A DNA stretch of 64,000 nucleotides, from the NCBI RefSeq assembly GCF_009931435.1, contig NZ_CP043414.1. One strand, given 5' to 3'. Position numbers and translations under genes: made by a program. Of the stretch, positions 10,640 to 53,641 are shown one piece after another. Every line of letters starts with the position of its first letter. The stretch's first letter is position 1. The notes beneath the pieces were generated by a model. That model saw only the letters and a program-made list of their open reading frames with translations. It was not told where the DNA came from and did no database searches. The stretch is from Escherichia coli. GTDB taxonomy: Bacteria; Pseudomonadota; Gammaproteobacteria; Enterobacterales; Enterobacteriaceae.

Positions 10640-10988
<349 letters not shown>

Positions 10989-11015: not shown

Positions 11016-11050
11016 CGATGGCGTTGAATATTTTTTCAGCGCCATTTTTA
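11016..11050 (+). terminator. Terminator-like hairpin closing the folC-dedD transcription unit
   Basis: ggcgttgaa-tatttttt-cagcgcc hairpin followed by a T-rich tract. Confidence 0.4.
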
Positions 11051-11074
11051 TTGATGCGTGGGAAGGAAATCCCT

Positions 11075-11090
11075 ACGCAAACGTTTTCTT
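11075..11090. promoter_or_regulatory. PurR operator (pur box) of the cvpA-purF operon
   Basis: acgcaaacgttttctt matches the PurR box consensus (aCGCAAACGtTTTCnT), about 57 bp upstream of the cvpA ATG. Confidence 0.7.
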
Positions 11091-11146
11091 TTTCTGTTAG
11101 AATGCGCCCCGAACAGGATGACAGGGCGTAAAATCGTGGGACACAT

Positions 11147-11635: not shown

Positions 11636-11671
11636 GTGCTCTGAGATGTGGCTTAACGAGGAAAAAGACGT

Positions 11672-13189
11672 ATGTGCGGTATTGTCGGTATCGCCGGTGT
11701 TATGCCGGTTAACCAGTCGATTTATGATGCCTTAACGGTGCTTCAGCATCGCGGTCAGGATGCCGCCGGCATCATCACCATTGATGCCAATAACTGCTTC
11801 CGTTTGCGTAAAGCGAACGGGCTGGTGAGCGATGTCTTCGAAGCTCGCCATATGCAGCGTTTGCAGGGCAATATGGGCATTGGTCATGTGCGTTACCCCA
11901 CGGCTGGTAGCTCCAGCGCCTCTGAAGCGCAGCCGTTTTACGTTAACTCCCCGTATGGCATCACGCTTGCCCACAACGGCAATCTGACCAACGCTCACGA
12001 GTTGCGTAAAAAACTGTTTGAAGAAAAACGCCGCCACATCAACACCACTTCCGACTCGGAAATTCTGCTTAATATCTTCGCCAGCGAGCTGGACAACTTC
12101 CGCCACTACCCGCTGGAAGCCGACAACATCTTCGCCGCCATTGCTGCTACAAACCGCTTAATCCGCGGCGCGTATGCCTGTGTGGCGATGATTATCGGCC
12201 ACGGTATGGTGGCTTTCCGCGATCCTAACGGTATTCGTCCGCTGGTACTGGGGAAACGTGATATCGACGACAATCGCACAGAATATATGGTCGCTTCCGA
12301 AAGCGTTGCGCTCGATACCCTGGGCTTTGAGTTCCTGCGTGATGTCGCCCCAGGCGAGGCGATTTACATCACTGAAGAAGGGCAGCTGTTTACCCGTCAG
12401 TGCGCTGACAACCCGGTCAGCAATCCGTGCCTGTTCGAGTATGTTTACTTTGCCCGACCAGACTCGTTCATCGACAAAATTTCCGTTTACAGCGCGCGTG
12501 TGAATATGGGCACCAAGCTGGGCGAGAAAATTGCTCGTGAATGGGAAGATCTGGATATCGACGTGGTGATCCCAATTCCGGAAACCTCTTGTGATATCGC
12601 GCTGGAAATCGCCCGTATTCTGGGCAAACCGTACCGCCAGGGCTTTGTGAAAAACCGCTATGTTGGCCGCACGTTTATCATGCCGGGCCAGCAGCTGCGT
12701 CGTAAGTCCGTGCGCCGTAAACTGAACGCCAACCGCGCTGAATTCCGCGATAAAAACGTCCTGCTGGTCGATGACTCCATCGTGCGTGGTACTACTTCTG
12801 AGCAGATTATCGAGATGGCGCGTGAAGCCGGAGCGAAGAAAGTTTACCTCGCTTCTGCGGCACCGGAAATTCGCTTCCCGAACGTTTACGGGATTGATAT
12901 GCCAAGCGCCACGGAGCTTATCGCCCACGGTCGTGAAGTGGATGAAATTCGCCAGATCATCGGTGCTGATGGTTTGATTTTCCAGGATCTGAATGATCTG
13001 ATCGAAGCCGTCCGTGCGGAAAACCCGGATATCCAGCAGTTTGAATGCTCGGTGTTCAACGGCGTTTACGTCACCAAAGATGTTGATCAGGGCTACCTCG
13101 ATTTCCTTGATACTTTACGTAATGACGACGCTAAAGCCGTGCAACGTCAGAACGAAGTGGAAAATCTCGAAATGCATAACGAAGGATGA
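11672..13189 (+). CDS. purF: Amidophosphoribosyltransferase
   Basis: 505-aa ORF; N-terminal MCGIVGI (Ntn Cys nucleophile); PRPP-binding motif [13 protein letters not shown]. Confidence 0.95.
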
Positions 13190-13283
13190 TGACTTCGCTC
13201 AGGGTGCCGGTCTGGCACCCTGACTTGCAACTCCCGCCGAAATCCTGCAAAGTCTGGCTGCAAGTCTGACAGGGCAACTATTT

Positions 13284-13853
13284 ATGAAACGACTTATTGT
13301 GGGCATCAGCGGTGCCAGCGGCGCGATTTATGGCGTGCGTTTATTACAGGTTCTGCGTGATGTCGCAGATGTTGAAACGCATCTGGTAATGAGCCAGGCC
13401 GCGCGCCAGACCTTATCCCTTGAAACGGATTTCTCCCTGCGTGATGTGCAGGCATTAGCCGATGTCACGCACGATGCGCGCGATATTGCCGCCAGCATCT
13501 CTTCCGGTTCTTTCCAGACGTTGGGGATGGTGATTTTACCCTGTTCAATCAAAACCCTGTCCGGCATTGTGCATAGCTATACGGATGGCTTACTGACCCG
13601 TGCGGCAGATGTGGTGCTGAAAGAGCGTCGCCCGCTGGTGCTCTGCGTGCGTGAAACACCGTTGCACTTAGGCCACCTGCGTTTAATGACTCAGGCGGCA
13701 GAAATCGGTGCGGTAATTATGCCTCCCGTTCCGGCATTTTATCATCGCCCACAATCCCTTGATGATGTGATAAATCAGACGGTTAACCGTGTTCTTGACC
13801 AGTTTGCGATAAATCTACCCGAAGATCTCTTTGCCCGCTGGCAGGGCGCATAA
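13284..13853 (+). CDS. ubiX: Flavin prenyltransferase UbiX
   Basis: 189-aa ORF; flavoprotein motif GISGASGAIYG. Confidence 0.9.
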   Translation: MKRLIVGISGASGAIYGVRLLQVLRDVADVETHLVMSQAARQTLSLETDFSLRDVQALADVTHDARDIAASISSGSFQTLGMVILPCSIKTLSGIVHSYTDGLLTRAADVVLKERRPLVLCVRETPLHLGHLRLMTQAAEIGAVIMPPVPAFYHRPQSLDDVINQTVNRVLDQFAINLPEDLFARWQGA

Positions 13854-13861
13854 CTCCGCTG

Positions 13862-13884
13862 TTGCCCTGTTTCAGGGCAATTTT
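13862..13884 (+). terminator. Rho-independent terminator after ubiX
   Basis: ttgccctg-ttt-cagggcaa hairpin followed by tttt. Confidence 0.6.
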
Positions 13885-14044
13885 GCAACCGCGATCAAAT
13901 CCTCAACATTTTGTTCCTGCCATTCAATCTAAACGCTGCGATCCAACCGCCATACCTGCTATCTTCAACTTCAGGACAATAATGCAACGTCTTATTAACA
14001 TATTTAACGTTGAATGTTACTGTTGTCGTCAAGATGGCATAAGA

Positions 14045-14060
14045 CCTGCATGAACGAGCC
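14045..14060 (+). promoter_or_regulatory. Candidate sigma54 (-24/-12) promoter of argT
   Basis: tggcat-aagac-ctgca fits the TGGCAC-N5-TTGCA spacing, about 58 bp upstream of the argT ATG; argT is nitrogen-regulated in enterics. Confidence 0.45.
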
Positions 14061-14117
14061 TGCAAACACACAACACAATACACAATATAAAAAAGCCATT
14101 TCACTTGAGGGTTATGT

Positions 14118-14900
14118 ATGAAGAAGTCGATTCTCGCTCTGTCTTTGTTAGTCGGGATTTCCGCAGCAGCTTCCAGCTACGCGGCACTGCCGGAGACGGT
14201 ACGTATCGGAACGGATACCACCTATGCACCGTTCTCATCGAAAGATGCCAAAGGTGACTTTGTTGGCTTTGATATCGATCTCGGTAACGAGATGTGCAAA
14301 CGGATGCAGGTGAAATGTACCTGGGTTGCCAGTGACTTTGACGCGCTGATCCCCTCACTGAAAGCGAAAAAGATCGACGCCATTATTTCGTCGCTCTCCA
14401 TTACGGATAAACGTCAGCAGGAGATTGCCTTCTCCGACAAACTGTACGCCGCAGACTCTCGTCTGATTGCTGCCAAAGGTTCACCGATTCAGCCAACGCT
14501 GGATTCACTGAAAGGTAAACATGTTGGTGTGCTGCAGGGATCAACCCAGGAAGCGTATGCCAATGATAACTGGCGCAGTAAGGGTGTCGATGTGGTGGCC
14601 TATGCTAACCAGGATTTGGTCTATTCCGATCTGGCTGCAGGACGCCTGGATGCCGCTCTGCAAGATGAGGTTGCTGCCAGCGAAGGTTTCCTCAAGCAAC
14701 CTGCCGGTAAAGATTTCGCTTTTGCAGGCCCTTCAGTGAAAGACAAAAAATACTTCGGTGACGGCACCGGTGTCGGGCTACGTAAAGATGATGCTGAACT
14801 GACGGCTGCGTTTAATAAGGCGCTTGGCGAGCTGCGTCAGGACGGCACCTACGACAAGATGGCGAAAAAGTATTTCGACTTTAATGTCTACGGTGACTGA
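14118..14900 (+). CDS. argT: Lysine/arginine/ornithine-binding periplasmic protein
   Basis: 260-aa ORF with signal peptide; about 70% identical to the adjacent hisJ paralog. Confidence 0.9.
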
Positions 14901-15117
14901 TACGTCGCAGGGAAGCTGTACCTGATGGAATGATCATGGTGCACGCCAGGTTTGTTGCACTATCGTGGTGCATTAAAATGCATACTTAAGCATTTTTAAT
15001 GAAAAATAATACGTCTAACGGGGCGGGATATTTTGCCTTGATGGTCAATTTTATGGCACGATAAGTGTAACAAACCTGTAAATATTCCCTATAAAAAGAC
15101 TGTCAGTTGAGGACATT

Positions 15118-15900
15118 ATGAAAAAACTGGTGCTATCGCTCTCTCTGGTTCTGGCCTTCTCCAGCGCAACGGCGGCGTTTGCTGCGATTCCGCAAAACAT
15201 CCGCATCGGTACCGATCCGACCTATGCGCCATTTGAATCAAAAAATTCACAAGGTGAACTGGTTGGCTTCGACATCGATCTGGCGAAGGAATTGTGCAAA
15301 CGCATCAATACGCAATGTACGTTTGTCGAAAACCCGCTGGATGCGTTAATCCCGTCCTTAAAAGCGAAGAAGATTGACGCCATCATGTCATCGCTTTCCA
15401 TTACGGAAAAACGTCAGCAGGAAATTGCCTTCACCGACAAACTGTACGCTGCCGACTCTCGTCTGGTAGTGGCGAAAAATTCCGACATTCAGCCGACAGT
15501 CGAGTCGCTGAAAGGCAAGCGCGTAGGCGTATTGCAGGGCACCACCCAGGAGACGTTCGGTAACGAACACTGGGCACCAAAAGGCATTGAAATCGTCTCT
15601 TATCAGGGGCAGGACAACATTTATTCTGACCTGACTGCCGGACGTATTGATGCCGCATTCCAGGATGAGGTCGCCGCCAGCGAAGGTTTCCTCAAACAAC
15701 CCGTCGGTAAAGATTACAAATTCGGTGGCCCGTCTGTTAAAGATGAAAAACTGTTTGGCGTAGGTACCGGCATGGGTCTGCGTAAAGAAGATAACGAATT
15801 GCGCGAGGCACTGAACAAAGCCTTTGCCGAAATGCGCGCTGACGGTACTTACGAGAAATTAGCGAAAAAGTACTTCGATTTTGATGTTTATGGTGGTTAA
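15118..15900 (+). CDS. hisJ: Histidine-binding periplasmic protein
   Basis: 260-aa ORF with signal peptide ([22 protein letters not shown]); followed by hisQMP. Confidence 0.9.
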
Positions 15901-35261: not shown

Positions 35262-36203
<942 letters not shown>

Positions 36204-36246
36204 TCGACGGACCATAGATAATTTCTAAGACAATAGTGTAAAAACG

Positions 36247-36287
36247 AGCCGCTGGGGGTGTTTTAAACCCCAGCGGCTTTTTTTTAG
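36247..36287 (+). terminator. Rho-independent terminator of lrhA
   Basis: agccgctggggg...ccccagcggct stem followed by 9 T. Confidence 0.8.
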
Positions 36288-36832
36288 TAAAAAGCCTTCC
36301 TCGTATCGTGCAGAACGCACAAAACTGTTCATTTTTCAATCACCAGAGATTCACGTCCCGAACGCACAAATAATCGCCTGAAAAAAATCACCTGCTACAA
36401 TGATGTTAAAAAATACGTAAATTTGTTGCTGCGTTTTTGTTATGGAATGACAAAAGCGTGTCACAGATCAAGAAAATACTCTCTTTTGGGGGGAGGAATC
36501 GACACAAATTCCTGTCAAAATAGACCCGTATTTTTTCCATTGCTTCACAACGGACACGATTCAACAACATCTAATTATCCTGGAGTCGTCAAGGATCTGG
36601 GGTGAAAGGGCATTAAATGCTAATAGTGTTGATATTATGTAAACTAATGTGAAGAAACTTTTGTTAAAGTTGACAAAAGGTTATAGAAAGGAGTAAAAGA
36701 CCACATCAATTAGCTGTATAAAAGAGTTTCTACAGTGATTGTAAGGTTTTTTTTATTCCTCCCCATGAATCGATGTGGCGTCCATCTGCCGTGAAGAGCA
36801 GTGAATCTGGCGCTACTTTTGATGAGTAAGCA

Positions 36833-37276
36833 ATGAGTATGTCAACATCCACTGAAGTCATCGCTCATCACTGGGCATTCGCTATCTTTCTTATCGTTGC
36901 CATTGGCCTGTGTTGCCTGATGCTGGTAGGCGGTTGGTTTTTAGGCGGTCGCGCACGCGCGAGGTCGAAAAACGTTCCGTTTGAATCCGGTATCGACTCG
37001 GTCGGCTCCGCCCGCTTACGCCTGTCCGCCAAGTTTTATCTGGTGGCCATGTTCTTCGTTATCTTCGACGTTGAAGCGCTGTATCTGTTCGCATGGTCAA
37101 CCTCTATCCGCGAAAGCGGCTGGGTAGGCTTTGTGGAAGCTGCAATTTTTATTTTTGTGTTACTGGCTGGTCTGGTTTATCTGGTGCGTATTGGCGCGCT
37201 GGACTGGACGCCCGCGCGTTCACGCCGCGAGCGTATGAACCCGGAAACGAACAGTATCGCTAATCGTCAACGCTAA
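36833..37276 (+). CDS. nuoA: NADH-quinone oxidoreductase subunit A
   Basis: 147-aa membrane ORF; first gene of a 13-gene nuo cluster. Confidence 0.9.
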
Positions 37277-37291
37277 CCGCGAGGCATTAAG

Positions 37292-37954
37292 ATGGATTAT
37301 ACGCTCACCCGCATAGATCCCAACGGTGAGAACGACCGTTACCCCCTGCAAAAGCAGGAGATCGTAACCGACCCTCTGGAGCAAGAAGTTAACAAAAACG
37401 TGTTTATGGGCAAGCTCAATGACATGGTTAACTGGGGTCGTAAAAACTCAATTTGGCCGTATAACTTCGGTCTTTCCTGCTGTTACGTTGAGATGGTGAC
37501 TTCGTTTACCGCGGTGCATGACGTGGCACGTTTTGGCGCAGAAGTATTGCGTGCTTCGCCGCGTCAGGCTGACCTGATGGTGGTTGCAGGAACCTGCTTT
37601 ACCAAAATGGCACCGGTTATTCAGCGTCTGTATGACCAGATGCTGGAACCAAAATGGGTTATCTCAATGGGGGCCTGTGCCAACTCTGGCGGTATGTACG
37701 ATATTTATTCCGTTGTGCAGGGCGTTGATAAATTCATCCCGGTTGATGTGTATATCCCGGGCTGCCCGCCACGTCCTGAAGCGTACATGCAGGCACTGAT
37801 GCTGTTGCAGGAATCTATCGGTAAAGAACGTCGTCCGCTCTCCTGGGTGGTTGGCGATCAGGGCGTTTATCGCGCCAATATGCAATCAGAGCGCGAACGC
37901 AAGCGCGGTGAACGCATTGCCGTTACCAACCTGCGTACACCTGACGAGATTTAA
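37292..37954 (+). CDS. nuoB: NADH-quinone oxidoreductase subunit B
   Basis: 220-aa ORF; Fe-S cluster N2 cysteine motifs ([20 protein letters not shown]). Confidence 0.95.
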
Positions 37955-38047
37955 TTTGCGCCTGTCGGCAAAGGGATTTTTCTTCGCTTATTCCTAAATC
38001 TATTTCGCGAAGCTTACTGCGCCGACAGTCACCACGGACCATTTGCA

Positions 38048-39850
38048 ATGGTGAACAATATGACCGACTTAACCGCGCAAGAACCCGCCTGGCAGACCCG
38101 CGATCATCTTGATGATCCGGTGATTGGCGAACTGCGCAACCGTTTTGGGCCGGATGCCTTTACTGTTCAGGCGACTCGCACCGGGGTTCCCGTTGTGTGG
38201 ATCAAGCGTGAACAATTACTGGAAGTGGGTGATTTCTTAAAGAAACTGCCGAAACCTTACGTCATGCTGTTTGACTTACACGGCATGGACGAACGTCTGC
38301 GCACACACCGCGAAGGGTTACCTGCCGCGGATTTTTCCGTTTTCTACCATCTGATTTCTATCGATCGTAACCGCGACATCATGCTGAAGGTGGCGCTGGC
38401 AGAAAACGACCTGCACGTACCGACCTTCACCAAGCTGTTCCCGAACGCTAACTGGTATGAGCGTGAAACCTGGGATCTGTTTGGCATTACTTTCGATGGT
38501 CACCCCAATTTGCGCCGCATCATGATGCCGCAAACCTGGAAAGGTCACCCGCTGCGTAAAGATTACCCGGCGCGCGCTACCGAATTCTCGCCGTTTGAGC
38601 TGACCAAAGCCAAACAGGATCTGGAGATGGAAGCCCTGACCTTCAAACCGGAAGAGTGGGGGATGAAGCGTGGCACCGAAAATGAAGACTTCATGTTCCT
38701 CAACCTCGGTCCGAACCACCCGTCGGCGCACGGTGCTTTCCGTATCGTTTTGCAACTCGATGGCGAAGAGATTGTCGACTGCGTACCAGACATCGGTTAC
38801 CACCATCGTGGTGCGGAGAAAATGGGCGAGCGCCAGTCATGGCACAGCTACATTCCGTATACCGACCGTATCGAATATCTCGGTGGCTGTGTTAACGAGA
38901 TGCCGTATGTACTGGCGGTAGAGAAACTGGCCGGGATCACCGTGCCGGATCGCGTTAACGTCATTCGCGTAATGCTTTCTGAGCTGTTCCGCATCAACAG
39001 CCACCTGCTGTATATCTCGACCTTTATTCAGGACGTCGGCGCGATGACGCCAGTGTTCTTCGCCTTTACCGATCGTCAGAAAATTTACGATCTGGTGGAA
39101 GCAATCACTGGTTTCCGTATGCACCCGGCGTGGTTCCGTATTGGCGGCGTAGCGCACGACCTGCCGCGCGGCTGGGATCGCCTGCTGCGTGAGTTCCTCG
39201 ACTGGATGCCGAAACGTCTGGCGTCTTATGAGAAAGCGGCGCTGCAAAACACCATTTTGAAAGGCCGTTCCCAGGGCGTAGCCGCCTACGGCGCGAAAGA
39301 GGCGCTGGAGTGGGGCACCACTGGTGCTGGTTTGCGTGCTACCGGGATCGACTTCGATGTGCGTAAGGCGCGCCCTTATTCTGGCTATGAAAACTTCGAC
39401 TTTGAAATCCCGGTTGGTGGTGGTGTTTCTGACTGCTACACCCGCGTAATGCTGAAAGTGGAAGAACTGCGTCAGAGTCTGCGCATTCTTGAGCAGTGCC
39501 TCAACAACATGCCGGAAGGCCCGTTCAAAGCGGATCACCCGCTGACCACGCCGCCGCCGAAAGAGCGCACGCTGCAACATATCGAAACCCTGATCACCCA
39601 CTTCCTGCAAGTGTCGTGGGGGCCGGTGATGCCTGCCAATGAATCTTTCCAGATGATTGAGGCGACCAAAGGGATCAACAGTTACTACCTGACCAGCGAC
39701 GGCAGCACTATGAGTTATCGCACCCGTATCCGTACGCCGAGTTATGCGCATTTGCAGCAAATTCCGGCGGCGATCCGCGGCAGCCTGGTGTCTGACCTGA
39801 TTGTTTATCTGGGCAGTATCGATTTTGTTATGTCAGATGTGGACCGCTAA
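38048..39850 (+). CDS. nuoC: NADH-quinone oxidoreductase subunit C/D (fused)
   Basis: 600-aa ORF; size and order consistent with the fused NuoCD of enterobacteria. Confidence 0.9.
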
Positions 39851-39852
39851 TT

Positions 39853-40353
39853 ATGCACGAGAATCAACAACCACAAACCGAGGCTTTTGAGCTGAGTGCG
39901 GCTGAGCGTGAAGCGATTGAGCACGAGATGCACCACTACGAAGACCCGCGTGCGGCGTCCATTGAAGCGCTGAAAATCGTTCAGAAACAGCGTGGATGGG
40001 TGCCAGACGGCGCGATCCACGCGATCGCTGACGTTCTGGGTATTCCCGCAAGTGATGTCGAAGGCGTGGCTACTTTCTACAGCCAGATCTTCCGCCAGCC
40101 GGTTGGTCGCCATGTGATCCGTTATTGCGACAGCGTGGTCTGTCACATTAACGGTTACCAGGGCATTCAGGCGGCACTGGAGAAAAAACTGAACATCAAA
40201 CCAGGGCAAACGACGTTTGACGGTCGCTTTACGCTGCTGCCAACTTGCTGCCTGGGGAACTGTGATAAAGGGCCAAACATGATGATCGATGAGGACACTC
40301 ACGCGCATCTGACCCCGGAAGCGATTCCTGAACTGCTGGAGCGGTATAAATGA
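39853..40353 (+). CDS. nuoE: NADH-quinone oxidoreductase subunit E
   Basis: 166-aa ORF; 2Fe-2S thioredoxin-like Cys motifs (CDSVVCH ... [10 protein letters not shown]); stop overlaps the nuoF start. Confidence 0.9.
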
Positions 40354-41687
40354 AAAACATTATCCGTACTCCCGAAACGCATCCGCTGACCTGGCGTCTG
40401 CGTGATGACAAACAGCCAGTGTGGCTGGACGAATATCGCAGCAAAAACGGTTACGAAGGAGCGCGTAAGGCGCTGACCGGACTGTCTCCGGACGAGATCG
40501 TCAATCAGGTTAAAGACGCTGGCCTGAAAGGGCGCGGCGGTGCGGGCTTTTCGACTGGTCTGAAGTGGAGCCTGATGCCGAAAGACGAATCCATGAACAT
40601 CCGTTACCTGCTGTGTAACGCCGATGAAATGGAGCCGGGCACCTATAAAGACCGCCTGCTGATGGAGCAACTGCCGCACCTGCTGGTGGAAGGTATGCTC
40701 ATTTCCGCATTTGCGCTGAAAGCTTATCGTGGCTACATCTTCCTGCGTGGCGAATATATTGAAGCGGCAGTGAATCTGCGCCGCGCCATTGCCGAAGCGA
40801 CCGAAGCGGGTCTGCTTGGCAAAAACATTATGGGAACAGGGTTCGATTTCGAACTGTTCGTCCATACCGGGGCAGGGCGCTACATCTGCGGGGAAGAAAC
40901 AGCGTTAATCAACTCCCTGGAAGGGCGTCGTGCTAACCCACGCTCGAAACCCCCCTTCCCGGCAACCTCCGGCGTATGGGGCAAACCGACCTGTGTCAAC
41001 AACGTCGAAACCCTGTGTAACGTTCCGGCGATCCTCGCTAACGGCGTGGAGTGGTATCAGAACATCTCGAAAAGTAAAGATGCTGGCACCAAGCTGATGG
41101 GCTTCTCCGGTCGGGTGAAAAATCCGGGCCTGTGGGAACTGCCGTTCGGCACTACCGCACGCGAGATCCTCGAAGATTACGCCGGTGGTATGCGTGACGG
41201 CCTGAAATTCAAAGCCTGGCAGCCAGGCGGTGCGGGCACTGACTTCCTGACCGAAGCGCACCTTGACCTGCCGATGGAATTCGAAAGTATCGGTAAAGCG
41301 GGCAGCCGTCTGGGTACGGCGCTGGCGATGGCGGTTGATCACGAGATCAACATGGTGTCGCTGGTACGAAACCTGGAAGAATTTTTCGCCCGTGAGTCCT
41401 GCGGCTGGTGTACGCCGTGCCGCGACGGTTTGCCGTGGAGCGTGAAAATTCTGCGCGCGCTGGAGCGTGGCGAAGGTCAGCCGGGCGATATCGAAACACT
41501 TGAGCAACTGTGTCGATTCTTGGGGCCGGGTAAAACTTTCTGTGCCCACGCACCTGGTGCAGTGGAGCCGTTACAGAGCGCCATCAAATATTTCCGCGAA
41601 GAATTTGAGGCGGGAATCAAACAGCCGTTCAGCAATACCCATTTGATTAATGGGATTCAGCCGAACCTGCTGAAAGAGCGCTGGTAA
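40350..41687 (+). CDS. nuoF: NADH-quinone oxidoreductase subunit F
   Basis: 445-aa ORF; NADH/FMN-binding [13 protein letters not shown]; 4Fe-4S motif CGWCTPC. Confidence 0.95.
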
Positions 41688-41739
41688 CCGAATTTCGATT
41701 AACGCTCAGTCTCTGACTGAGAAAACTGGAAGCATGCTA

Positions 41740-44466
41740 ATGGCTACAATTCATGTAGACGGCAAAGAATACGAGGTCAACGGAGCGGACAACCTGCTGG
41801 AAGCTTGTCTGTCTCTGGGCCTTGATATTCCTTACTTTTGCTGGCATCCGGCGCTGGGAAGCGTCGGTGCTTGCCGCCAGTGTGCGGTGAAGCAATACCA
41901 AAACGCGGAAGACACGCGTGGTCGCCTGGTGATGTCCTGTATGACACCGGCTTCCGATGGCACCTTTATTTCCATTGACGACGAAGAAGCGAAACAGTTC
42001 CGTGAAAGCGTGGTCGAGTGGTTGATGACCAACCACCCGCACGATTGTCCGGTATGTGAAGAGGGCGGTAACTGCCATCTTCAGGATATGACCGTGATGA
42101 CCGGACACAGCTTCCGTCGCTACCGTTTCACCAAACGTACCCACCGCAATCAGGATCTGGGGCCGTTCATCTCTCACGAAATGAACCGTTGCATCGCCTG
42201 CTACCGCTGCGTGCGTTACTACAAAGATTACGCTGACGGTACAGATCTGGGCGTTTACGGTGCACATGACAACGTCTACTTCGGTCGCCCGGAAGACGGC
42301 ACCCTGGAAAGCGAATTCTCCGGTAACCTGGTCGAAATTTGCCCGACCGGCGTATTCACCGACAAAACGCACTCCGAGCGTTATAACCGTAAATGGGATA
42401 TGCAGTTTGCGCCGAGCATCTGCCAGCAATGTTCCATCGGCTGTAACATCAGCCCCGGCGAGCGTTATGGCGAACTGCGTCGTATCGAAAACCGTTACAA
42501 CGGTACGGTAAACCACTACTTCCTCTGCGACCGAGGTCGTTTCGGTTACGGCTACGTCAACCTGAAAGATCGTCCGCGTCAGCCAGTACAGCGTCGTGGC
42601 GATGATTTCATTACCCTCAACGCCGAGCAGGCAATGCAGGGCGCGGCAGATATTCTGCGTCAGTCGAAGAAAGTCATCGGCATCGGTTCTCCGCGTGCCA
42701 GCGTGGAAAGCAACTTTGCGCTGCGTGAGCTGGTGGGCGAAGAAAACTTCTATACCGGTATCGCTCACGGTGAGCAGGAACGTCTGCAACTGGCACTAAA
42801 AGTGCTGCGTGAAGGCGGCATTTATACTCCGGCTCTGCGCGAAATCGAATCTTATGATGCGGTACTGGTGCTGGGCGAAGACGTTACCCAGACCGGCGCG
42901 CGCGTTGCGCTGGCAGTGCGTCAGGCGGTGAAAGGTAAAGCACGCGAAATGGCGGCAGCACAGAAAGTGGCTGACTGGCAGATTGCGGCAATCCTCAACA
43001 TTGGCCAACGTGCGAAGCATCCGCTGTTTGTGACTAACGTTGATGACACCCGTCTGGATGATATCGCGGCGTGGACTTACCGCGCACCGGTTGAAGATCA
43101 GGCGCGTTTAGGTTTTGCCATTGCCCATGCTCTGGATAACTCCGCGCCAGCGGTTGACGGTATCGAGCCTGAACTGCAAAGCAAAATCGACGTCATCGTG
43201 CAGGCACTGGCAGGTGCGAAGAAACCGTTAATTATCTCCGGGACGAACGCTGGTAGCGCTGAAGTGATTCAGGCAGCGGCTAACGTGGCGAAAGCCCTGA
43301 AAGGTCGCGGCGCTGACGTCGGTATCACCATGATTGCCCGTTCCGTCAACAGCATGGGGCTGGGCATTATGGGCGGTGGATCGCTTGAAGAAGCGTTAAC
43401 CGAACTGGAAACCGGACGCGCCGACGCGGTGGTGGTGCTGGAAAACGATCTGCATCGTCACGCTTCCGCTACCCGCGTGAATGCTGCGCTGGCGAAAGCG
43501 CCGCTGGTGATGGTGGTTGACCATCAACGCACGGCGATCATGGAAAACGCCCATCTGGTGCTTTCTGCCGCCAGCTTTGCTGAAAGCGACGGTACGGTGA
43601 TCAACAATGAAGGCCGTGCCCAACGTTTCTTCCAGGTTTACGATCCGGCTTATTACGACAGCAAAACTGTGATGCTGGAAAGCTGGCGCTGGCTGCACTC
43701 GCTGCACAGCACCCTACTGAGCCGTGAAGTGGACTGGACGCAGCTCGACCATGTGATTGACGCTGTTGTGGCGAAAATCCCGGAACTGGCAGGTATCAAA
43801 GATGCTGCGCCGGATGCGACATTCCGTATTCGTGGTCAGAAACTGGCCCGTGAGCCGCACCGTTACAGTGGTCGTACCGCCATGCGCGCCAACATCAGCG
43901 TTCATGAGCCGCGTCAGCCGCAGGATATTGACACCATGTTCACCTTCTCGATGGAGGGTAACAACCAGCCGACCGCGCACCGTTCGCAAGTGCCGTTTGC
44001 CTGGGCGCCGGGCTGGAACTCCCCGCAGGCGTGGAACAAATTCCAGGACGAAGTGGGCGGCAAACTGCGCTTTGGCGATCCGGGCGTGCGTCTGTTTGAA
44101 ACCAGCGAAAACGGTCTGGATTACTTCACCAGCGTACCGGCACGCTTCCAGCCGCAGGAAGGGAAATGGCGTATCGCGCCGTACTACCACCTGTTTGGCA
44201 GCGATGAATTGTCACAGCGTGCCCCGGTCTTCCATAGCCGTATGCCGCAACCGTACATCAAACTCAACCCAGCGGATGCCGCGAAGTTGGGAGTGAACGC
44301 GGGTACACGCGTCTCCTTTAGTTACGATGGCAACACGGTCACGCTGCCGGTTGAAATCGCCGAAGGACTGACGGCAGGGCAGGTGGGCTTGCCGATGGGC
44401 ATGTCCGGTATTGCTCCGGTGCTGGCTGGCGCGCATCTTGAGGATCTCAAGGAGGCACAACAATGA
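41740..44466 (+). CDS. nuoG: NADH-quinone oxidoreductase subunit G
   Basis: The ORF-track frame starts at 41734; the ATG at 41740 has better SD spacing (908 aa). N-terminal Fe-S cysteine clusters. Confidence 0.9.
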
Positions 44467-45440
44467 GTTGGATATCACCGGAACTGATTGAGATCCTGCT
44501 GACCATCCTCAAAGCGGTGGTGATCCTGCTGGTAGTTGTCACCTGCGGGGCATTCATGAGCTTTGGCGAACGTCGCCTGCTGGGTCTGTTCCAGAACCGT
44601 TACGGACCTAACCGTGTTGGCTGGGGCGGTTCGCTCCAGCTGGTCGCGGACATGATCAAAATGTTCTTTAAAGAAGACTGGATCCCGAAATTCTCGGATC
44701 GCGTCATCTTTACCCTGGCACCGATGATTGCCTTTACCTCGCTGCTGCTGGCCTTTGCGATTGTGCCAGTCAGTCCGGGTTGGGTAGTTGCCGACCTGAA
44801 CATCGGGATTTTGTTCTTCCTGATGATGGCAGGTCTGGCGGTTTACGCGGTGCTGTTTGCGGGCTGGTCAAGTAACAACAAATACTCGCTGCTGGGTGCG
44901 ATGCGTGCTTCTGCGCAGACCCTGAGCTACGAAGTGTTCCTCGGGCTTTCCCTGATGGGCGTGGTGGCGCAGGCCGGTTCATTCAACATGACCGACATCG
45001 TTAACAGCCAGGCGCACGTGTGGAACGTCATCCCGCAATTCTTTGGTTTTATTACCTTTGCCATCGCGGGCGTGGCGGTGTGTCACCGTCACCCGTTTGA
45101 CCAGCCGGAAGCCGAGCAGGAACTGGCGGATGGTTACCACATTGAATATTCCGGCATGAAGTTCGGTCTGTTCTTCGTGGGCGAATACATCGGGATTGTG
45201 ACCATCTCCGCATTGATGGTGACGCTGTTCTTCGGTGGCTGGCAAGGCCCGTTCTTACCGCCATTCATCTGGTTCGCGCTGAAAACCGCGTTCTTTATGA
45301 TGATGTTCATTTTGATTCGTGCGTCGTTACCGCGTCCGCGTTATGACCAGGTAATGTCCTTCGGCTGGAAAATCTGCCTGCCGCTGACGCTGATCAACTT
45401 GCTGGTAACGGCGGCTGTCATTCTCTGGCAGGCGCAATAA
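44463..45440 (+). CDS. nuoH: NADH-quinone oxidoreductase subunit H
   Basis: 325-aa polytopic membrane ORF; overlaps the nuoG stop. Confidence 0.9.
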
Positions 45441-45454
45441 GGGGCACTAAGACC

Positions 45455-45997
45455 ATGACCTTAAAAGAATTGTTAGTAGGTTTCGGCACCCAGGTTCGTA
45501 GTATCTGGATGATCGGCCTGCACGCGTTCGCCAAACGCGAAACGCGAATGTACCCGGAAGAGCCGGTCTATCTGCCGCCCCGTTATCGTGGTCGCATCGT
45601 TCTGACCCGCGACCCGGATGGCGAAGAGCGTTGCGTAGCCTGTAACCTCTGCGCGGTCGCCTGCCCGGTCGGCTGTATCTCGCTGCAAAAAGCAGAAACC
45701 AAAGACGGTCGCTGGTATCCGGAATTTTTCCGCATCAACTTCTCACGCTGCATTTTCTGTGGTCTGTGCGAAGAAGCCTGTCCGACCACGGCGATTCAGT
45801 TAACCCCGGATTTCGAAATGGGGGAATACAAGCGCCAGGATCTGGTTTATGAGAAAGAGGATCTGCTGATCTCCGGTCCGGGCAAATACCCGGAATATAA
45901 CTTCTACCGGATGGCAGGTATGGCAATCGACGGCAAAGATAAGGGCGAAGCAGAGAACGAAGCCAAGCCTATCGACGTCAAGAGCCTGTTACCGTAA
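45455..45997 (+). CDS. nuoI: NADH-quinone oxidoreductase subunit I
   Basis: 180-aa ORF; two 4Fe-4S ferredoxin motifs [12 protein letters not shown] and [12 protein letters not shown]. Confidence 0.95.
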
Positions 45998-46008
45998 GGA
46001 GAGGGGCA

Positions 46009-46563
46009 ATGGAGTTCGCTTTTTATATCTGTGGCCTGATAGCCATACTTGCGACCTTGCGAGTGATCACCCATACCAATCCGGTACACGCATTGCTGTA
46101 CCTGATTATTTCGCTGCTGGCGATTTCCGGGGTGTTCTTCTCACTGGGCGCTTACTTCGCCGGTGCGCTGGAAATTATCGTCTACGCGGGTGCCATTATG
46201 GTGCTGTTCGTGTTCGTGGTGATGATGCTCAACCTGGGCGGTTCGGAAATCGAACAGGAACGCCAGTGGCTGAAACCGCAGGTGTGGATTGGTCCGGCAA
46301 TTTTGTCAGCCATCATGCTGGTGGTGATTGTTTACGCCATTCTCGGTGTTAACGATCAGGGTATCGACGGTACGCCAATCAGTGCTAAAGCAGTGGGTAT
46401 TACGCTGTTCGGGCCTTACGTACTGGCGGTGGAACTGGCTTCTATGCTGCTGCTGGCTGGTCTGGTTGTGGCCTTCCACGTCGGTCGTGAAGAGCGTGCG
46501 GGTGAAGTGCTGAGCAATCGTAAAGACGACAGCGCGAAAAGAAAAACGGAGGAGCACGCATGA
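46009..46563 (+). CDS. nuoJ: NADH-quinone oxidoreductase subunit J
   Basis: 184-aa membrane ORF. Confidence 0.9.
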
Positions 46564-46862
46564 TCCCCTTACAACATGGACTGATCCTCGCGGCAATCTT
46601 ATTCGTTCTTGGCTTAACCGGTCTGGTTATCCGTCGCAATCTGCTCTTTATGCTGATTGGTCTGGAAATCATGATTAACGCCTCTGCGCTGGCCTTTGTG
46701 GTCGCCGGAAGCTACTGGGGTCAGACCGACGGTCAGGTGATGTACATTCTCGCCATCAGCCTCGCGGCGGCGGAAGCGAGTATCGGCCTTGCGCTGCTGC
46801 TGCAACTTCACCGTCGTCGCCAGAACCTGAACATCGATTCAGTAAGTGAGATGCGCGGATGA
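46560..46862 (+). CDS. nuoK: NADH-quinone oxidoreductase subunit K
   Basis: 100-aa membrane ORF; overlaps nuoJ and nuoL. Confidence 0.9.
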
Positions 46863-48700
46863 ACATGCTTGCCTTAACCATTATTTTGCCATTGATTGGC
46901 TTCGTCTTGCTGGCGTTCTCCCGTGGGCGCTGGTCTGAAAATGTCTCGGCGATCGTGGGCGTAGGCTCTGTGGGCCTGGCGGCGCTGGTAACCGCCTTTA
47001 TCGGCGTTGACTTCTTCGCTAACGGCGAGCAGGCATACAGCCAGCCGCTGTGGACATGGATGTCGGTAGGCGACTTTAACATCGGTTTCAATCTGGTGCT
47101 GGACGGCCTGTCGCTGACCATGCTCTCGGTGGTCACCGGTGTCGGTTTCCTTATTCACATGTACGCCTCCTGGTATATGCGTGGTGAAGAGGGCTACTCT
47201 CGCTTCTTCGCCTACACCAACCTGTTCATCGCCAGCATGGTGGTTCTGGTTCTTGCCGACAACCTGCTGCTGATGTACCTCGGCTGGGAAGGCGTGGGCC
47301 TGTGCTCCTATCTGTTGATCGGTTTCTATTACACCGATCCGAAGAATGGCGCAGCGGCAATGAAAGCGTTTGTCGTGACCCGTGTGGGTGACGTGTTCCT
47401 CGCTTTCGCGCTGTTCATTCTCTACAACGAACTGGGCACCCTGAACTTCCGTGAAATGGTGGAACTGGCACCCGCGCACTTTGCTGACGGCAATAACATG
47501 CTGATGTGGGCGACGCTGATGCTGCTGGGCGGTGCGGTTGGTAAATCTGCGCAGCTACCGTTGCAGACATGGCTTGCCGACGCGATGGCTGGCCCGACAC
47601 CTGTCTCCGCGCTGATCCACGCCGCAACGATGGTAACCGCGGGTGTCTACCTGATCGCCCGTACCCACGGCCTGTTCCTGATGACACCAGAAGTTCTGCA
47701 TCTGGTGGGTATTGTCGGGGCAGTTACGCTGCTGCTGGCCGGTTTTGCCGCGCTGGTACAGACCGACATCAAACGTGTTCTCGCTTACTCCACCATGAGC
47801 CAGATTGGCTACATGTTCCTTGCGCTTGGCGTACAGGCATGGGATGCGGCGATTTTCCACTTGATGACCCACGCGTTCTTTAAAGCGCTGCTGTTCCTGG
47901 CATCCGGTTCCGTCATTCTGGCCTGCCATCACGAACAGAACATCTTCAAGATGGGCGGTCTGCGTAAATCTATTCCGCTGGTTTATCTCTGCTTCCTGGT
48001 GGGTGGTGCAGCACTGTCGGCACTGCCGCTGGTTACTGCGGGCTTCTTCAGTAAGGATGAGATCCTCGCTGGTGCGATGGCGAATGGTCATATCAATCTG
48101 ATGGTGGCAGGTCTGGTCGGTGCGTTTATGACCTCTCTCTACACCTTCCGTATGATTTTCATCGTCTTCCACGGGAAAGAACAAATTCACGCTCACGCCG
48201 TGAAAGGGATTACTCACAGCCTGCCGCTGATTGTGCTGCTGATCCTTTCCACCTTCGTTGGCGCACTGATTGTACCGCCGCTGCAGGGCGTGCTTCCGCA
48301 AACTACGGAACTGGCGCACGGCAGCATGTTGACCCTGGAAATTACCTCTGGCGTGGTCGCGGTGGTTGGTATTCTGCTGGCAGCCTGGCTGTGGCTGGGT
48401 AAACGTACTCTGGTGACCTCCATCGCCAACAGTGCGCCGGGCCGTCTGCTGGGTACCTGGTGGTACAACGCCTGGGGCTTTGACTGGCTGTACGACAAAG
48501 TGTTCGTCAAGCCGTTCCTGGGTATTGCCTGGTTGCTGAAACGCGATCCGCTGAACTCAATGATGAACATCCCGGCTGTCCTTTCCCGCTTTGCAGGTAA
48601 AGGTCTGCTGTTAAGCGAGAACGGTTATCTGCGCTGGTATGTGGCATCCATGAGCATCGGTGCGGTCGTGGTGCTGGCACTGTTGATGGTACTGCGTTGA
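46859..48700 (+). CDS. nuoL: NADH-quinone oxidoreductase subunit L
   Basis: 613-aa antiporter-like membrane ORF. Confidence 0.9.
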
Positions 48701-48738
48701 GTTAAGGATTGTGGGCTTGCCCCTGGGCATATAAGAAC

Positions 48739-48775
48739 GTAGGTCGGATAAGCCGCCTTCGCGGCGCATCCGACA
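48739..48775. repeat. REP element in the nuoL-nuoM intercistronic gap
   Basis: gtaggtcggataagccgccttcgcggcgcatccgaca, a canonical REP palindrome inside the operon. Confidence 0.7.
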
Positions 48776-48865
48776 CTACAACCACAATCCGAAGAGAATT
48801 TTCTGTCGTGAGAATTCGTTGAAAATCCGGTCCTGACGGGACTTTTACAAGGAATAAAGATCGCC

Positions 48866-50395
48866 ATGTTACTACCCTGGCTAATATTAATTCCCTTTAT
48901 CGGCGGCTTCCTGTGCTGGCAGACCGAACGCTTTGGCGTCAAGGTGCCGCGCTGGATCGCGCTGATCACCATGGGATTGACGCTGGCGCTGTCGCTGCAA
49001 CTGTGGTTGCAGGGCGGTTATTCACTGACGCAATCCGCCGGAATTCCGCAGTGGCAGTCTGAATTCGACATGCCGTGGATCCCGCGTTTTGGTATCTCTA
49101 TCCATCTCGCCATTGACGGGCTATCGCTGCTGATGGTCGTGCTGACCGGTCTGCTCGGTGTGCTGGCGGTACTCTGTTCGTGGAAAGAGATCGAAAAATA
49201 TCAGGGCTTCTTCCACCTCAACCTGATGTGGATCCTGGGCGGCGTTATCGGCGTGTTCCTTGCCATCGACATGTTCCTGTTCTTCTTCTTCTGGGAAATG
49301 ATGCTGGTGCCGATGTACTTCCTGATCGCACTGTGGGGGCATAAAGCCTCTGACGGTAAAACGCGTATCACGGCGGCAACCAAGTTCTTCATTTACACCC
49401 AGGCGAGTGGTCTGGTGATGCTGATCGCCATCCTGGCGCTGGTTTTTGTTCACTACAATGCGACTGGCGTCTGGACCTTCAACTATGAAGAGCTGCTGAA
49501 TACGCCAATGTCTAACGGCGTGGAATATTTGCTGATGCTGGGCTTCTTCATCGCATTTGCGGTGAAAATGCCGGTGGTTCCGCTGCATGGCTGGCTGCCG
49601 GATGCGCACTCCCAGGCTCCGACCGCCGGTTCCGTTGACCTCGCGGGGATCTTGCTGAAAACTGCCGCTTACGGTTTGCTGCGTTTCTCCCTGCCGCTGT
49701 TCCCGAACGCGTCGGCAGAGTTTGCACCAATCGCTATGTGGCTGGGTGTTATCGGCATCTTCTACGGTGCGTGGATGGCCTTCGCCCAGACCGATATCAA
49801 ACGTCTGATCGCCTACACCTCGGTTTCCCACATGGGCTTCGTGCTGATTGCTATCTACACCGGCAGCCAGTTAGCCTACCAGGGCGCGGTCATTCAGATG
49901 ATTGCTCACGGCTTGTCGGCGGCGGGTCTGTTTATTCTCTGCGGTCAGCTTTATGAGCGTATCCATACCCGCGATATGCGCATGATGGGCGGTCTGTGGA
50001 GCAAAATGAAATGGCTGCCAGCACTGTCACTGTTCTTTGCGGTGGCAACGCTTGGGATGCCGGGCACCGGTAACTTCGTCGGCGAATTTATGATTCTGTT
50101 CGGCAGCTTCCAGGTTGTCCCGGTGATTACCGTTATCTCTACCTTTGGGCTGGTCTTTGCATCTGTTTATTCGCTGGCGATGTTGCATCGCGCTTACTTC
50201 GGTAAAGCGAAAAGCCAGATTGCCAGCCAGGAACTGCCAGGGATGTCGCTGCGTGAGCTGTTTATGATCCTGTTGCTGGTGGTGCTGCTGGTACTGCTGG
50301 GCTTCTATCCGCAGCCGATTCTGGATACCTCGCACTCCGCGATTGGCAATATCCAGCAGTGGTTTGTTAATTCCGTTACTACTACAAGGCCGTAA
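48866..50395 (+). CDS. nuoM: NADH-quinone oxidoreductase subunit M
   Basis: 509-aa antiporter-like membrane ORF. Confidence 0.9.
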   Translation: MLLPWLILIPFIGGFLCWQTERFGVKVPRWIALITMGLTLALSLQLWLQGGYSLTQSAGIPQWQSEFDMPWIPRFGISIHLAIDGLSLLMVVLTGLLGVLAVLCSWKEIEKYQGFFHLNLMWILGGVIGVFLAIDMFLFFFFWEMMLVPMYFLIALWGHKASDGKTRITAATKFFIYTQASGLVMLIAILALVFVHYNATGVWTFNYEELLNTPMSNGVEYLLMLGFFIAFAVKMPVVPLHGWLPDAHSQAPTAGSVDLAGILLKTAAYGLLRFSLPLFPNASAEFAPIAMWLGVIGIFYGAWMAFAQTDIKRLIAYTSVSHMGFVLIAIYTGSQLAYQGAVIQMIAHGLSAAGLFILCGQLYERIHTRDMRMMGGLWSKMKWLPALSLFFAVATLGMPGTGNFVGEFMILFGSFQVVPVITVISTFGLVFASVYSLAMLHRAYFGKAKSQIASQELPGMSLRELFMILLLVVLLVLLGFYPQPILDTSHSAIGNIQQWFVNSVTTTRP

Positions 50396-50401
50396 ATCGC
50401 C

Positions 50402-51859
50402 ATGACAATAACTCCACAAAACCTGATCGCACTGCTACCGTTGCTGATCGTCGGCTTGACGGTGGTGGTTGTGATGCTCTCCATTGCGTGGCGACGCAAT
50501 CATTTCCTCAACGCTACGATCTCGGTTATTGGGCTTAACGCGGCGCTGGTTTCGCTCTGGTTTGTCGGCCAGGCGGGCGCTATGGACGTTACGCCGCTGA
50601 TGCGCGTTGATGGTTTCGCCATGCTTTACACCGGGCTGGTATTGTTGGCGAGCCTCGCCACCTGTACTTTCGCCTACCCGTGGCTTGAAGGCTATAACGA
50701 CAACAAGGACGAGTTCTACCTGTTGGTGTTAATTGCCGCGCTGGGCGGGATCCTGCTGGCGAATGCCAACCATCTGGCGTCTCTGTTCCTCGGTATTGAA
50801 CTGATCTCTTTGCCGCTGTTTGGCCTGGTCGGTTACGCTTTCCGCCAGAAACGTTCGCTGGAAGCCAGTATCAAATACACTATCCTTTCTGCCGCAGCGT
50901 CTTCTTTCCTGCTGTTCGGTATGGCGCTGGTGTATGCGCAGTCTGGCGACCTGTCGTTTGTCGCGCTGGGTAAAAACCTCGGCGACGGTATGCTCAACGA
51001 GCCGCTGTTGCTGGCAGGTTTCGGCCTGATGATTGTTGGCCTTGGCTTCAAACTCTCTCTGGTGCCGTTCCACCTGTGGACGCCAGACGTATACCAGGGC
51101 GCGCCTGCGCCGGTTTCCACTTTCCTGGCGACGGCGAGCAAAATCGCTATCTTCGGCGTGGTGATGCGTCTGTTCCTTTACGCACCAGTGGGCGACAGCG
51201 AAGCGATTCGCGTGGTGCTGGCGATTATCGCCTTTGCCTCTATCATCTTCGGTAACCTGATGGCGCTGAGCCAGACCAATATCAAACGTCTGCTCGGTTA
51301 CTCATCTATCTCTCACCTCGGCTATCTGCTGGTGGCGCTGATTGCGCTGCAAACTGGCGAGATGTCGATGGAAGCGGTAGGGGTTTACCTGGCCGGTTAT
51401 CTGTTCAGCAGCCTCGGCGCGTTCGGCGTGGTCAGCCTGATGTCCAGCCCGTATCGTGGCCCGGATGCTGATTCCCTGTTCTCTTACCGCGGTCTGTTCT
51501 GGCATCGTCCGATCCTCGCGGCAGTGATGACGGTGATGATGCTGTCACTGGCGGGTATCCCAATGACGCTGGGCTTTATCGGTAAGTTCTATGTGCTGGC
51601 GGTCGGTGTCCAGGCACACTTGTGGTGGCTGGTGGGTGCGGTGGTTGTCGGTTCGGCAATCGGCCTCTACTACTACCTGCGCGTAGCGGTGAGCTTATAC
51701 CTGCACGCCCCGGAGCAACCGGGTCGCGACGCACCGTCAAACTGGCAGTACAGCGCGGGTGGTATCGTGGTGCTGATCTCTGCACTGTTGGTACTGGTGC
51801 TGGGTGTATGGCCGCAACCGCTGATTAGCATTGTGCGGTTAGCAATGCCGCTGATGTAA
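50402..51859 (+). CDS. nuoN: NADH-quinone oxidoreductase subunit N
   Basis: 485-aa antiporter-like membrane ORF; last gene of the nuo operon. Confidence 0.9.
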
Positions 51860-51883
51860 GCTGTCAGTTCGTAAGTCAGAAAG

Positions 51884-51910
51884 CCGCCGACAAGTTCGGC
51901 GGTTTTTTTT
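51884..51910 (+). terminator. Rho-independent terminator of the nuo operon
   Basis: ccgccga-caagt-tcggcgg hairpin followed by 8 T. Confidence 0.8.
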
Positions 51911-51926
51911 GGTGCCCTGACCCCCA

Positions 51927-52430
51927 TCACCCAACAATAACCGTCAGCGCATGATTCCCTTGCCGCAGCATACGTCGATACGCGCTAATCAGCTTTTCCA
52001 TATCGAGCATGATCGAAGCAAAGAGTTGCCCCTCTAACTCTTCTGAAAAGGTTACTCCCGGATAAATCTCCATTTCATTGAGTCGTTTAATGGAAAACTG
52101 TTTACGCAGCACATTTCGGTCAAGAGCTTCCAGTCGGTCGATTGTCGCGGCTAACTCCTGATTCCAGGTCAATCCCAGGAATCCATCTATGCCATCTTCG
52201 AGGCTGTGTTCACCAAGCACGGCACGACTCAGCGGATCATTCTTCGCGGGATCAAAAGCAGAGGTGCCTGTCAGCCCAAAGTGTAAAAAATCCCAGCGTT
52301 TATCAATATCCAGTCGGCGTAATCCTGAAAGCGTGTCATGTATATTATCCATCAAAGGTTTTTGAGTAGACTCAAGAAGTTGGTTAATCTTTTCTGAGTC
52401 AATTTCTGCAAAATAGCCAATCATTCCCAT
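51927..52430 (-). CDS. yfbM: DUF1877-family protein
   Basis: 167-aa ORF; size and position consistent with yfbM. It lies 67 bp from the nuoN stop in this strain. Confidence 0.7.
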   Translation of the reverse strand: MGMIGYFAEIDSEKINQLLESTQKPLMDNIHDTLSGLRRLDIDKRWDFLHFGLTGTSAFDPAKNDPLSRAVLGEHSLEDGIDGFLGLTWNQELAATIDRLEALDRNVLRKQFSIKRLNEMEIYPGVTFSEELEGQLFASIMLDMEKLISAYRRMLRQGNHALTVIVG

Positions 52431-52532
52431 TTTATTTTCCTCCGTTGAATTTCATGTTTCGCATCTTAAAACAGACGAGGGAAAATAAAATGTACATGTC
52501 GCTTTTTCTGGACCCGCCTCGAGAAATTTTTA

Positions 52533-53510
52533 TTATTTACTGTTGTATAACAAAGTTATAACCCCATCCACTACCTGAGCCATTTTCTGATAATTCAATC
52601 TGTCTGCGGTATCACCGGGCAAGTGGTATTGTTTATTACGATAAAAAGCGGTGTCGGTAATCATTACGGCGGGAATATCGTGTTGCCAATAATTAAGGTG
52701 ATCAGAGAAATCAATACCGGGAATAAACCCTGGGGCATTCATAGAATAAACAGATAAATCCTGAGATGACAACAATGCCGCTTTTAGCTGACGAACGGCG
52801 TTGATATCCTGCATTCTGCCGACCACGGCAATAAAGTCTCCCCGATCGGGATAAAGCCAGGACATTGCCGGGTAAGGGTAATCCTGACTACCAGGCGCAG
52901 AGTCGTAATAGCCAATCATCTCCAGCGCTATCATTAATCTAACTGGACGCTCAAGCGAAGCTGCATGTACCGCGCTCCCCATTTCATCGCTACGAAAGAA
53001 GGGCGGTTCTTCCGACGCATAGGCGACCAGCTGCACGCCAGTTTTCGGTGCTTGCTGCTGTAACAAACGTGCCAGTTCGAGTAATCCTGCCACGCCGCTG
53101 GCGTTATCATCCGCGCCCGGCGTATAGGTCAATTGATCGTTTTCATAACTGCTGACAGAATCATAGTGCGCACCAATAATAATCAGCGGTCCATCGGCAG
53201 GACCATAATCAGCAACAATGTTTTTGTAGGGACCTCCCGTAATGGGGACGTCCTGCGCGGTAACGCTGGCACCGCTACTGATAAAGACCTCTTTTATATA
53301 TTCTGCGGACCTTTTCAGATTATCAATATTGTCGGCACTACGGGGATGCACAGTTTGTGTAAGATAACGAACTGTTTTTTCTAATTGCTCAGGACTTGTG
53401 TGTCGGGGCGTTGGCGGTAATGCATTGACCCAGGGTTGGTAAAAAATAATCAGAGGGAGTGAAAACAGAATTAATATAATAAAAGCAAAGTTTATTTTTT
53501 TCATATGCAA
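52533..53510 (-). CDS. yfbL: Secreted M28-family (aminopeptidase-like) zinc peptidase
   Basis: 325-aa ORF with N-terminal signal/anchor (MHMKKINFAFIILILFSLPLIIF); M28 motifs IIGAHYDS and ASEEPPFF. Confidence 0.8.
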   Translation of the reverse strand: MHMKKINFAFIILILFSLPLIIFYQPWVNALPPTPRHTSPEQLEKTVRYLTQTVHPRSADNIDNLKRSAEYIKEVFISSGASVTAQDVPITGGPYKNIVADYGPADGPLIIIGAHYDSVSSYENDQLTYTPGADDNASGVAGLLELARLLQQQAPKTGVQLVAYASEEPPFFRSDEMGSAVHAASLERPVRLMIALEMIGYYDSAPGSQDYPYPAMSWLYPDRGDFIAVVGRMQDINAVRQLKAALLSSQDLSVYSMNAPGFIPGIDFSDHLNYWQHDIPAVMITDTAFYRNKQYHLPGDTADRLNYQKMAQVVDGVITLLYNSK

Positions 53511-53641
53511 ATTATTAATGGGTTGCGTTATTGAATCATTATTTGTTATAGGTTTCGATATTGTATTTTATTAAGATTAGCAGGATTATACAAAGAGTAT
53601 ATTTTATGTCTGGTGCCTGAGTTTATTTAAAAGGATTTTAT

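Follow-up and report, generated by a model that had tools for sequence, protein, structure and literature searches.

A gene-free nuoN-yfbM junction is the common allele of a presence/absence polymorphism in Escherichia coli

At a long-standing presence/absence polymorphism next to the nuo operon, the Escherichia coli DNA analyzed here (a stretch of 64,000 nucleotides, the window) very probably has the common allele, the one without genes. In this allele only 67 bp, made up of the predicted nuo terminator and a spacer, lie between nuoN and yfbM, and the alleles of the site have probably been exchanged by recombination in its flanks. The difference from K-12 is an ordinary pan-genome presence/absence polymorphism that is already known in kind. 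K-12 cannot be taken as a neutral reference at this site: only about one-sixth of complete E. coli genomes have its accessory genes yfbN, yfbO, and yfbP, and a nuoN without them alongside is the norm, a finding that matters little alone. The junction does offer a variable site that is small and clearly delimited, with the nuo terminator as its fixed edge, and that could be used as a neutral insertion locus or a lineage marker. It would be of some interest to learn how Escherichia has come to retain both the empty and the islet allele, and what the three uncharacterized proteins do.

The gene nuoN (50402-51859, + strand) is the last of the nuo (NADH dehydrogenase I) operon. It encodes a 485-aa product that matches the NCBIfam NuoN model (NF004439) with 947 bits over residues 1-485, and ends in a TAA stop at 51857-51859. 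Convergent with it, yfbM (51927-52430, - strand) encodes a 167-aa protein with a Pfam DUF1877 domain (PF08974, E 4.5e-34) and a match to PDB entry 1RYL, ‘hypothetical protein yfbM’ (E 4e-107); homologues under the survey matches described below are named ‘YfbM family protein’ by PGAP. The TGA stop of yfbM, read on the complement, occupies 51927-51929. These stop positions leave exactly 67 bp between the two genes (51860-51926), as the initial annotation had stated. In order, the junction consists of 23 nt of 3′ UTR, a hairpin, a T8 run, and a 16-nt spacer (GGTGCCCTGACCCCCA) abutting the yfbM stop; the earlier statement that the yfbM stop directly follows the nuoN terminator is thus borne out, with this spacer separating the two. 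GC content drops at the junction in an exact step from 57.6% to 42.8%, and falls as low as 33% in elaD. The genes yfbM, yfbL (52533-53510, - strand), yfbK (53642-55369, + strand), and elaD (55440-56654, - strand), the last three assigned from NCBIfam/Pfam matches and synteny with K-12, form a lower-GC block (51927-56654, 33-47% GC) that extends from nuoN to rbn. An Rfam scan of both strands from 51500 to 52700 returned no known RNA family, only sub-threshold matches to sroD (19.8 bits; gathering score 50), ryfA, and Fluoride.

Most likely, the 67 bp end transcription of the nuo operon through a rho-independent terminator, as read from an intrinsic-terminator-like element on the + strand at 51883-51910. 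Its hairpin starts 24 nt past the nuoN stop and has an 8-bp GC-rich stem closed by a 5-nt loop (stem GCCGCCGA, loop CAAGT, stem TCGGCGGT; 51883-51903), followed by T8 at 51903-51910. Folding of the + strand hairpin gives -18.6 kcal/mol (z = -4.98 against shuffled sequences) with U8 next to it, and folding of its 74-nt context gives -26.4 kcal/mol (z = -4.09). The element shows two properties of intrinsic terminators: a stem-loop followed by a U-run, and a position after the operon that is conserved in relatives. The layout of the nuoN terminator recurs in five further genera or species. Cronobacter, Kosakonia, Superficieibacter, and E. whittamii each have an A-run, a GC hairpin, T7, and ATGG 3′ of nuoN and keep the motif GGCGGTTTTTTTATGG, and a hairpin with A-run and T-run follows nuoN in all non-Escherichia genera compared. 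A consensus promoter/terminator scan called no terminator site at the junction; given the folding results, this miss at 51883-51910 is probably a false negative, the hairpin having escaped the scan probably because A-U pairing lengthens its stem into the U-run.

Bidirectional intrinsic terminators between convergent genes are an established class. The junction resembles them in having one GC-rich hairpin between convergent stops, flanked by an A-run and a T-run and able to fold on both strands. The upstream AGAAA run (51878-51882) can pair with the U-run, and the hairpin thus forms on the - strand too (-12.9 kcal/mol, z = -3.25). This near-symmetrical hairpin, framed by the A-run and the T-run, probably helps to stop yfbM transcription arriving from the opposite direction. 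The junction differs from the class in that its - strand tail (CUUUCUGA) is U-poor, with only 4 U in 8 nt; a role as the yfbM terminator is therefore plausible, and the case for it weaker than for nuo.

In the RefSeq annotation of K-12 MG1655 the order is yfbM (b2272), yfbN (b2273), yfbO (b2274), yfbP (b2275), and nuoN (b2276). The placement given in the initial annotation is thereby confirmed: nuoN does not adjoin yfbM in K-12. Alignment of the window with K-12 by BLAST yields two collinear blocks, 50001-51907 on the nuoN side (97.6% identity) and 51926-54000 on the yfbM side (97.0%). Between them K-12 has an islet of 2,561 bp with 39.8% GC, and the window has 18 bp (TTTGGTGCCCTGACCCCC, 51908-51925); BLAST and a direct reading of both K-12 junctions agree that homology to K-12 ends at 51907 and restarts at 51926. 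Flank genes, orientations, the nuoN hairpin, and the yfbM stop are common to both intervals, and the flanks are 96.7-97.6% identical (nuoN itself 97.6% at the DNA level). The K-12 interval differs in carrying three genes and the remnant of a SMI1/KNR4-family gene in place of the 18 bp, and in having its T-run cut to T5. The three genes are indeed missing here, as had been proposed, and are not displaced elsewhere in the window: islet DNA gave no blastn match anywhere in its 64 kb, and tblastn with YfbN, YfbO, and YfbP over the same sequence reached at best E 0.15.

Three probes, namely a 1.1-kb junction segment, a 131-nt junction segment, and the K-12 islet, were run against 5,426 complete E. 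coli genomes to survey the distribution of the two states. The 1.1-kb probe falls at a single place, with nuoN and yfbM contiguous, in 4,309 genomes. The 131-nt probe, which reaches across the two stop codons, matches without interruption in 4,212 of the 5,426 (77.6%); its two halves lie at separate places in about 1,158 further genomes, and about 50 are without one half. Matches to the islet probe occur in 1,015 genomes, with at least 80% of the islet covered in 946 and at least 99% identity in 985, which puts the K-12-type islet in roughly 950-1,000 genomes (about 17-18%). This islet allele is near-clonal and includes K-12 derivatives, HB101, J53, and some wild strains. Among the alleles of E. 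coli the gene-free junction is in the majority and the K-12 islet in the minority, and the survey excludes a short junction confined to the lineage of the window.

Two diverged islet variants together account for about 27 genomes. UID2309220013 carries a two-gene islet of 1,626 bp (37% GC, 84.5% identical to the K-12 islet) with yfbO-like and yfbN-like genes and without yfbP. Fourteen genomes, for example PapRG-06-5, carry a 2,053-bp variant with an extra, frameshifted SMI1/KNR4-family gene beside yfbM (5380-6093 of the extracted locus). Insertion sequences also reach the site. IS200C (IS200/IS605 family) lies right after the T-run, at a position equivalent to about 51910/51911, in strains U1 (2515-3217 of the extracted locus) and Ec-U14-1 (about 2582-3300); the gap of about 100 genomes between the two junction probes (4,309 against 4,212) suggests that this insertion is recurrent or is inherited within one lineage. 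Further rare states are an ISEc22 element (IS66 family) within yfbM and IS-bounded deletions that remove yfbM through elaD or yfbP through yfbK. At least seven configurations thus exist at or next to the junction among complete E. coli genomes. The initial annotation had spoken of a strain-specific indel hot spot; because of these configurations ‘hot spot’ is a reasonable description, while ‘strain-specific’ fails against a gene-free junction shared by 4,212 genomes.

The short junction extends to other members of the genus. Most Escherichia species sampled have it, their terminator being the one seen in the window and their short spacer related to its spacer: E. whittamii, an Escherichia species only 90% identical to the window, and E. 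albertii, in four genomes of which the gap is 63 bp. Escherichia sp. MOD1-EC7003 is the exception, with an islet allele in which an intact 191-aa SMI1/KNR4-like ORF (about 6504-7220 of the extracted locus) lies beside yfbM. The draft contig of the E. albertii type strain NBRC 107761 (NZ_BBMY01000086.1) stops about 11 nt beyond the yfbM stop, inside the junction. An insertion in that strain was considered and rejected in favor of an assembly break, closed E. albertii genomes having the ordinary 63-bp junction.

Beyond Escherichia, the nuoN terminator is the fixed edge of a nuoN-rbn interval whose content varies across genera of the Enterobacteriaceae. Cronobacter, Kosakonia, and GCA_022846635 have no yfbM-yfbL-yfbK-elaD block between nuoN and rbn; these two genes are direct neighbors in Cronobacter sakazakii (52-bp gap) and GCA_022846635 (57-bp gap), and a cheV-like gene separates them in Kosakonia. 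Klebsiella oxytoca has a fimbrial chaperone-usher operon directly 3′ of nuoN (8659-15458 of the extracted locus). Two small Phage_integrase-family genes bracket this operon, in an arrangement that resembles a fim switch. Superficieibacter sp. HKU1 has the order rbn, cheV-like gene, yfbK, yfbL, yfbP homolog, yfbN homolog, and nuoN; its yfbP and yfbN homologs (6001-7649 of the extracted locus) are swapped relative to K-12, and yfbM and yfbO are missing. Amino acid identity between Superficieibacter and K-12 is 62% for YfbP, 47% for YfbN, 74% for Rbn, 72% for ElaA, 70% for YfbK, 68% for YfbL, and 95% for NuoN.

That conserved core genes can enclose regions of genome plasticity, also called integration hot spots, is a general concept of pan-genome studies in E. 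coli and the Enterobacteriaceae. The nuoN-yfbM site resembles such regions in its fixed core flanks (nuoN on one side and rbn-elaA-elaB on the other), in low-GC content that varies by strain and genus, and in its repeated IS insertions. It differs in being without a tRNA, an integrase, or a phage attachment site, and in the very small size of its modules (0-2.6 kb). Recombinase genes at the nuoN-rbn interval were found only in K. oxytoca among the genera compared.

In minority Escherichia lineages, K-12 among them, the small AT-rich islet occupies the position between the T-run and the yfbM stop. Its GC content is 37-40%, against 56% in nuo. The left boundary in K-12 reads GGTTTTT|CTGAAAAAG and the right one CAAGCTAT|ATCACCC, and direct reading of the islet ends revealed neither inverted repeats nor a target-site duplication. 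The islet also lacks a tRNA and holds no transposase or integrase: its genes are yfbN, yfbO, and yfbP only, and Pfam and PADLOC detected no mobility domains in them. An origin of the K-12 islet as a mobile element (IS, transposon, or integrative island) was considered and rejected, as a mobility gene, repeats, and a duplication are all missing. In the fuller islet variants a possible 5-bp microhomology (ATGGT/ATTGT) is too short to count. Homology of the empty-site spacer to the right end of the islet in the MOD1-EC7003 and 14-genome alleles was likewise set aside, the agreement amounting to 7 of 8 positions of ATTGTGCT against ATGGTGCT, too short for significance.

Since the islet ends are without transposase, integrase, inverted repeats, and target-site duplication, homologous recombination in the conserved flanks is the most economical mechanism by which empty and islet alleles would move between lineages. 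The missing mobility signatures, together with mosaic flanks, indicate that the alleles have probably been exchanged in this way.

The islet encodes YfbP, with an N-terminal beta domain and TPR-like repeats, along with YfbO, YfbN and, in the fuller variants, a SMI1/KNR4-family protein. An AlphaFold2 model of YfbP (pLDDT 93) has an N-terminal four-strand domain followed by C-terminal helical repeats. A Foldseek search of the PDB with this model returned generic TPR matches only (TM-scores 0.25-0.30), and therefore no function can be inferred for YfbP. A SUKH-like N-terminus was tried for YfbP and rejected, with an hhalign probability of 0.2% and with TPR as the sole Pfam match across 46 homologs. 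Homologs of YfbP are patchily distributed, with 65% identity in Leminorella, 62% in Superficieibacter, and 36-46% in Bacteroidota, Janthinobacterium, and Iodobacter. YfbN has a marginal Pfam match to a UBA-like domain at its N-terminus, and YfbO matches no domain or PDB entry. Sequence searches of the PDB with YfbN, YfbO, and YfbP gave nothing significant, and a PADLOC search for defence systems assigned none of YfbN, YfbO, YfbP, YfbM, YfbL, and YfbK to a family. The additional ORF of the fuller variants stays below threshold against SUKH_5/SMI1_KNR4 (E 0.01-0.02), and its family assignment follows the PGAP name, SMI1/KNR4 family protein. A literature search for yfbN, yfbO, yfbP, yfbM, and DUF1877 found incidental mentions only and no functional study.

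The absence of the three genes does not by itself show a loss in the lineage of the window, as the evidence points in both directions: the empty site is phylogenetically broad, and the islet is old as well. Two histories can be set against each other, each possible and each short of probable. The gene-free junction may, tentatively, be a derived deletion, with yfbN and yfbP as old residents of the interval and the lineage of the window, in common with most Escherichia, having inherited an islet-deleted allele or received one through recombination. Superficieibacter sp. HKU1 speaks for this history, with yfbP and yfbN homologs between yfbL and nuoN whose divergence is in the range of that of Rbn, ElaA, YfbK, and YfbL; yet the gene order there differs, yfbP and yfbN being swapped and yfbM and yfbO missing, and Cronobacter, Kosakonia, and GCA_022846635 are without the whole block. 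Within Escherichia, pairwise identity among the three islet alleles is 78-86%, which makes them far more diverged than their flanks (93-97%). The alleles can also be arranged as a decay series, from a SMI1/KNR4-family gene (in MOD1-EC7003 and the 14-genome variant) to the K-12 yfbN-yfbM spacer, which at 272 bp is a remnant of that gene (7439-7710 of the extracted locus), and on to the loss of yfbP in UID2309220013. Against a derived deletion, four Escherichia species share the empty state, the divergent E. albertii among them. The K-12-type and UID2309220013-type alleles, moreover, are without the empty-site spacer, which has no homology to the right end of the islet in either, and therefore a simple deletion from those alleles cannot yield the empty one.

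The opposite history is conceivable in the same guarded sense. The gene-free junction would be ancestral for Escherichia, and the islet would have been inserted once 3′ of the nuoN terminator and spread by recombination to K-12-like and a few other lineages. The broad phylogenetic spread of the empty site and its majority status are consistent with such an origin, as is the conservation of the terminator and TTTTTTTATGG in genera that have nuoN beside rbn. The AT-richness of the islet, the patchy occurrence of YfbP, and the near-clonality of the K-12 allele (985 genomes at 99% identity or above) point the same way. A single insertion nevertheless leaves unexplained the synteny in Superficieibacter and the 14-22% divergence between islet alleles that share one site, two of these alleles being from E. 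coli.

A more far-reaching idea, which is unlikely, is that the position 3′ of the nuoN terminator acts as an integrase-free exchange point across the Enterobacteriaceae. The islet would then be ancient and cross-species, kept by selection in minority lineages (for instance as orphan factors with an immunity-like or protein-binding role), and would not reflect recent horizontal transfer. An assembly artefact or collapse peculiar to the window sequence, an idea prompted solely by the truncated E. albertii type-strain contig, has a negligible chance of explaining the short junction, as the same junction is present in thousands of closed genomes and an independent assembly (GCA_044679585.1) differs by 2 mismatches over 8,504 bp across it (99.98% identical).

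The window itself is, on sequence similarity, from a somewhat divergent Escherichia lineage without a representative among closed genomes, because the complete RefSeq E. coli genomes reach at most 97.4% identity to it across the junction kilobase (51400-52500) and at most 98.9% across 15 kb of nuo (36000-51000). Exact copies of its proteins occur on about 170-190 contigs, which NCBI labels E. coli or ‘MULTISPECIES Escherichia’.

The lower-GC block on the yfbM side of the junction is itself patchy in E. coli. The gene yfbK is missing in Z0117EC0005 and U1, and elaD in UID2309220013. In Z0117EC0005 yfbL is a pseudogene, and most of yfbL is missing in E. whittamii. In Shigella flexneri many shortened DUF1877/YfbM forms of 95-107 aa occur, which suggests that yfbM is decaying in that lineage.
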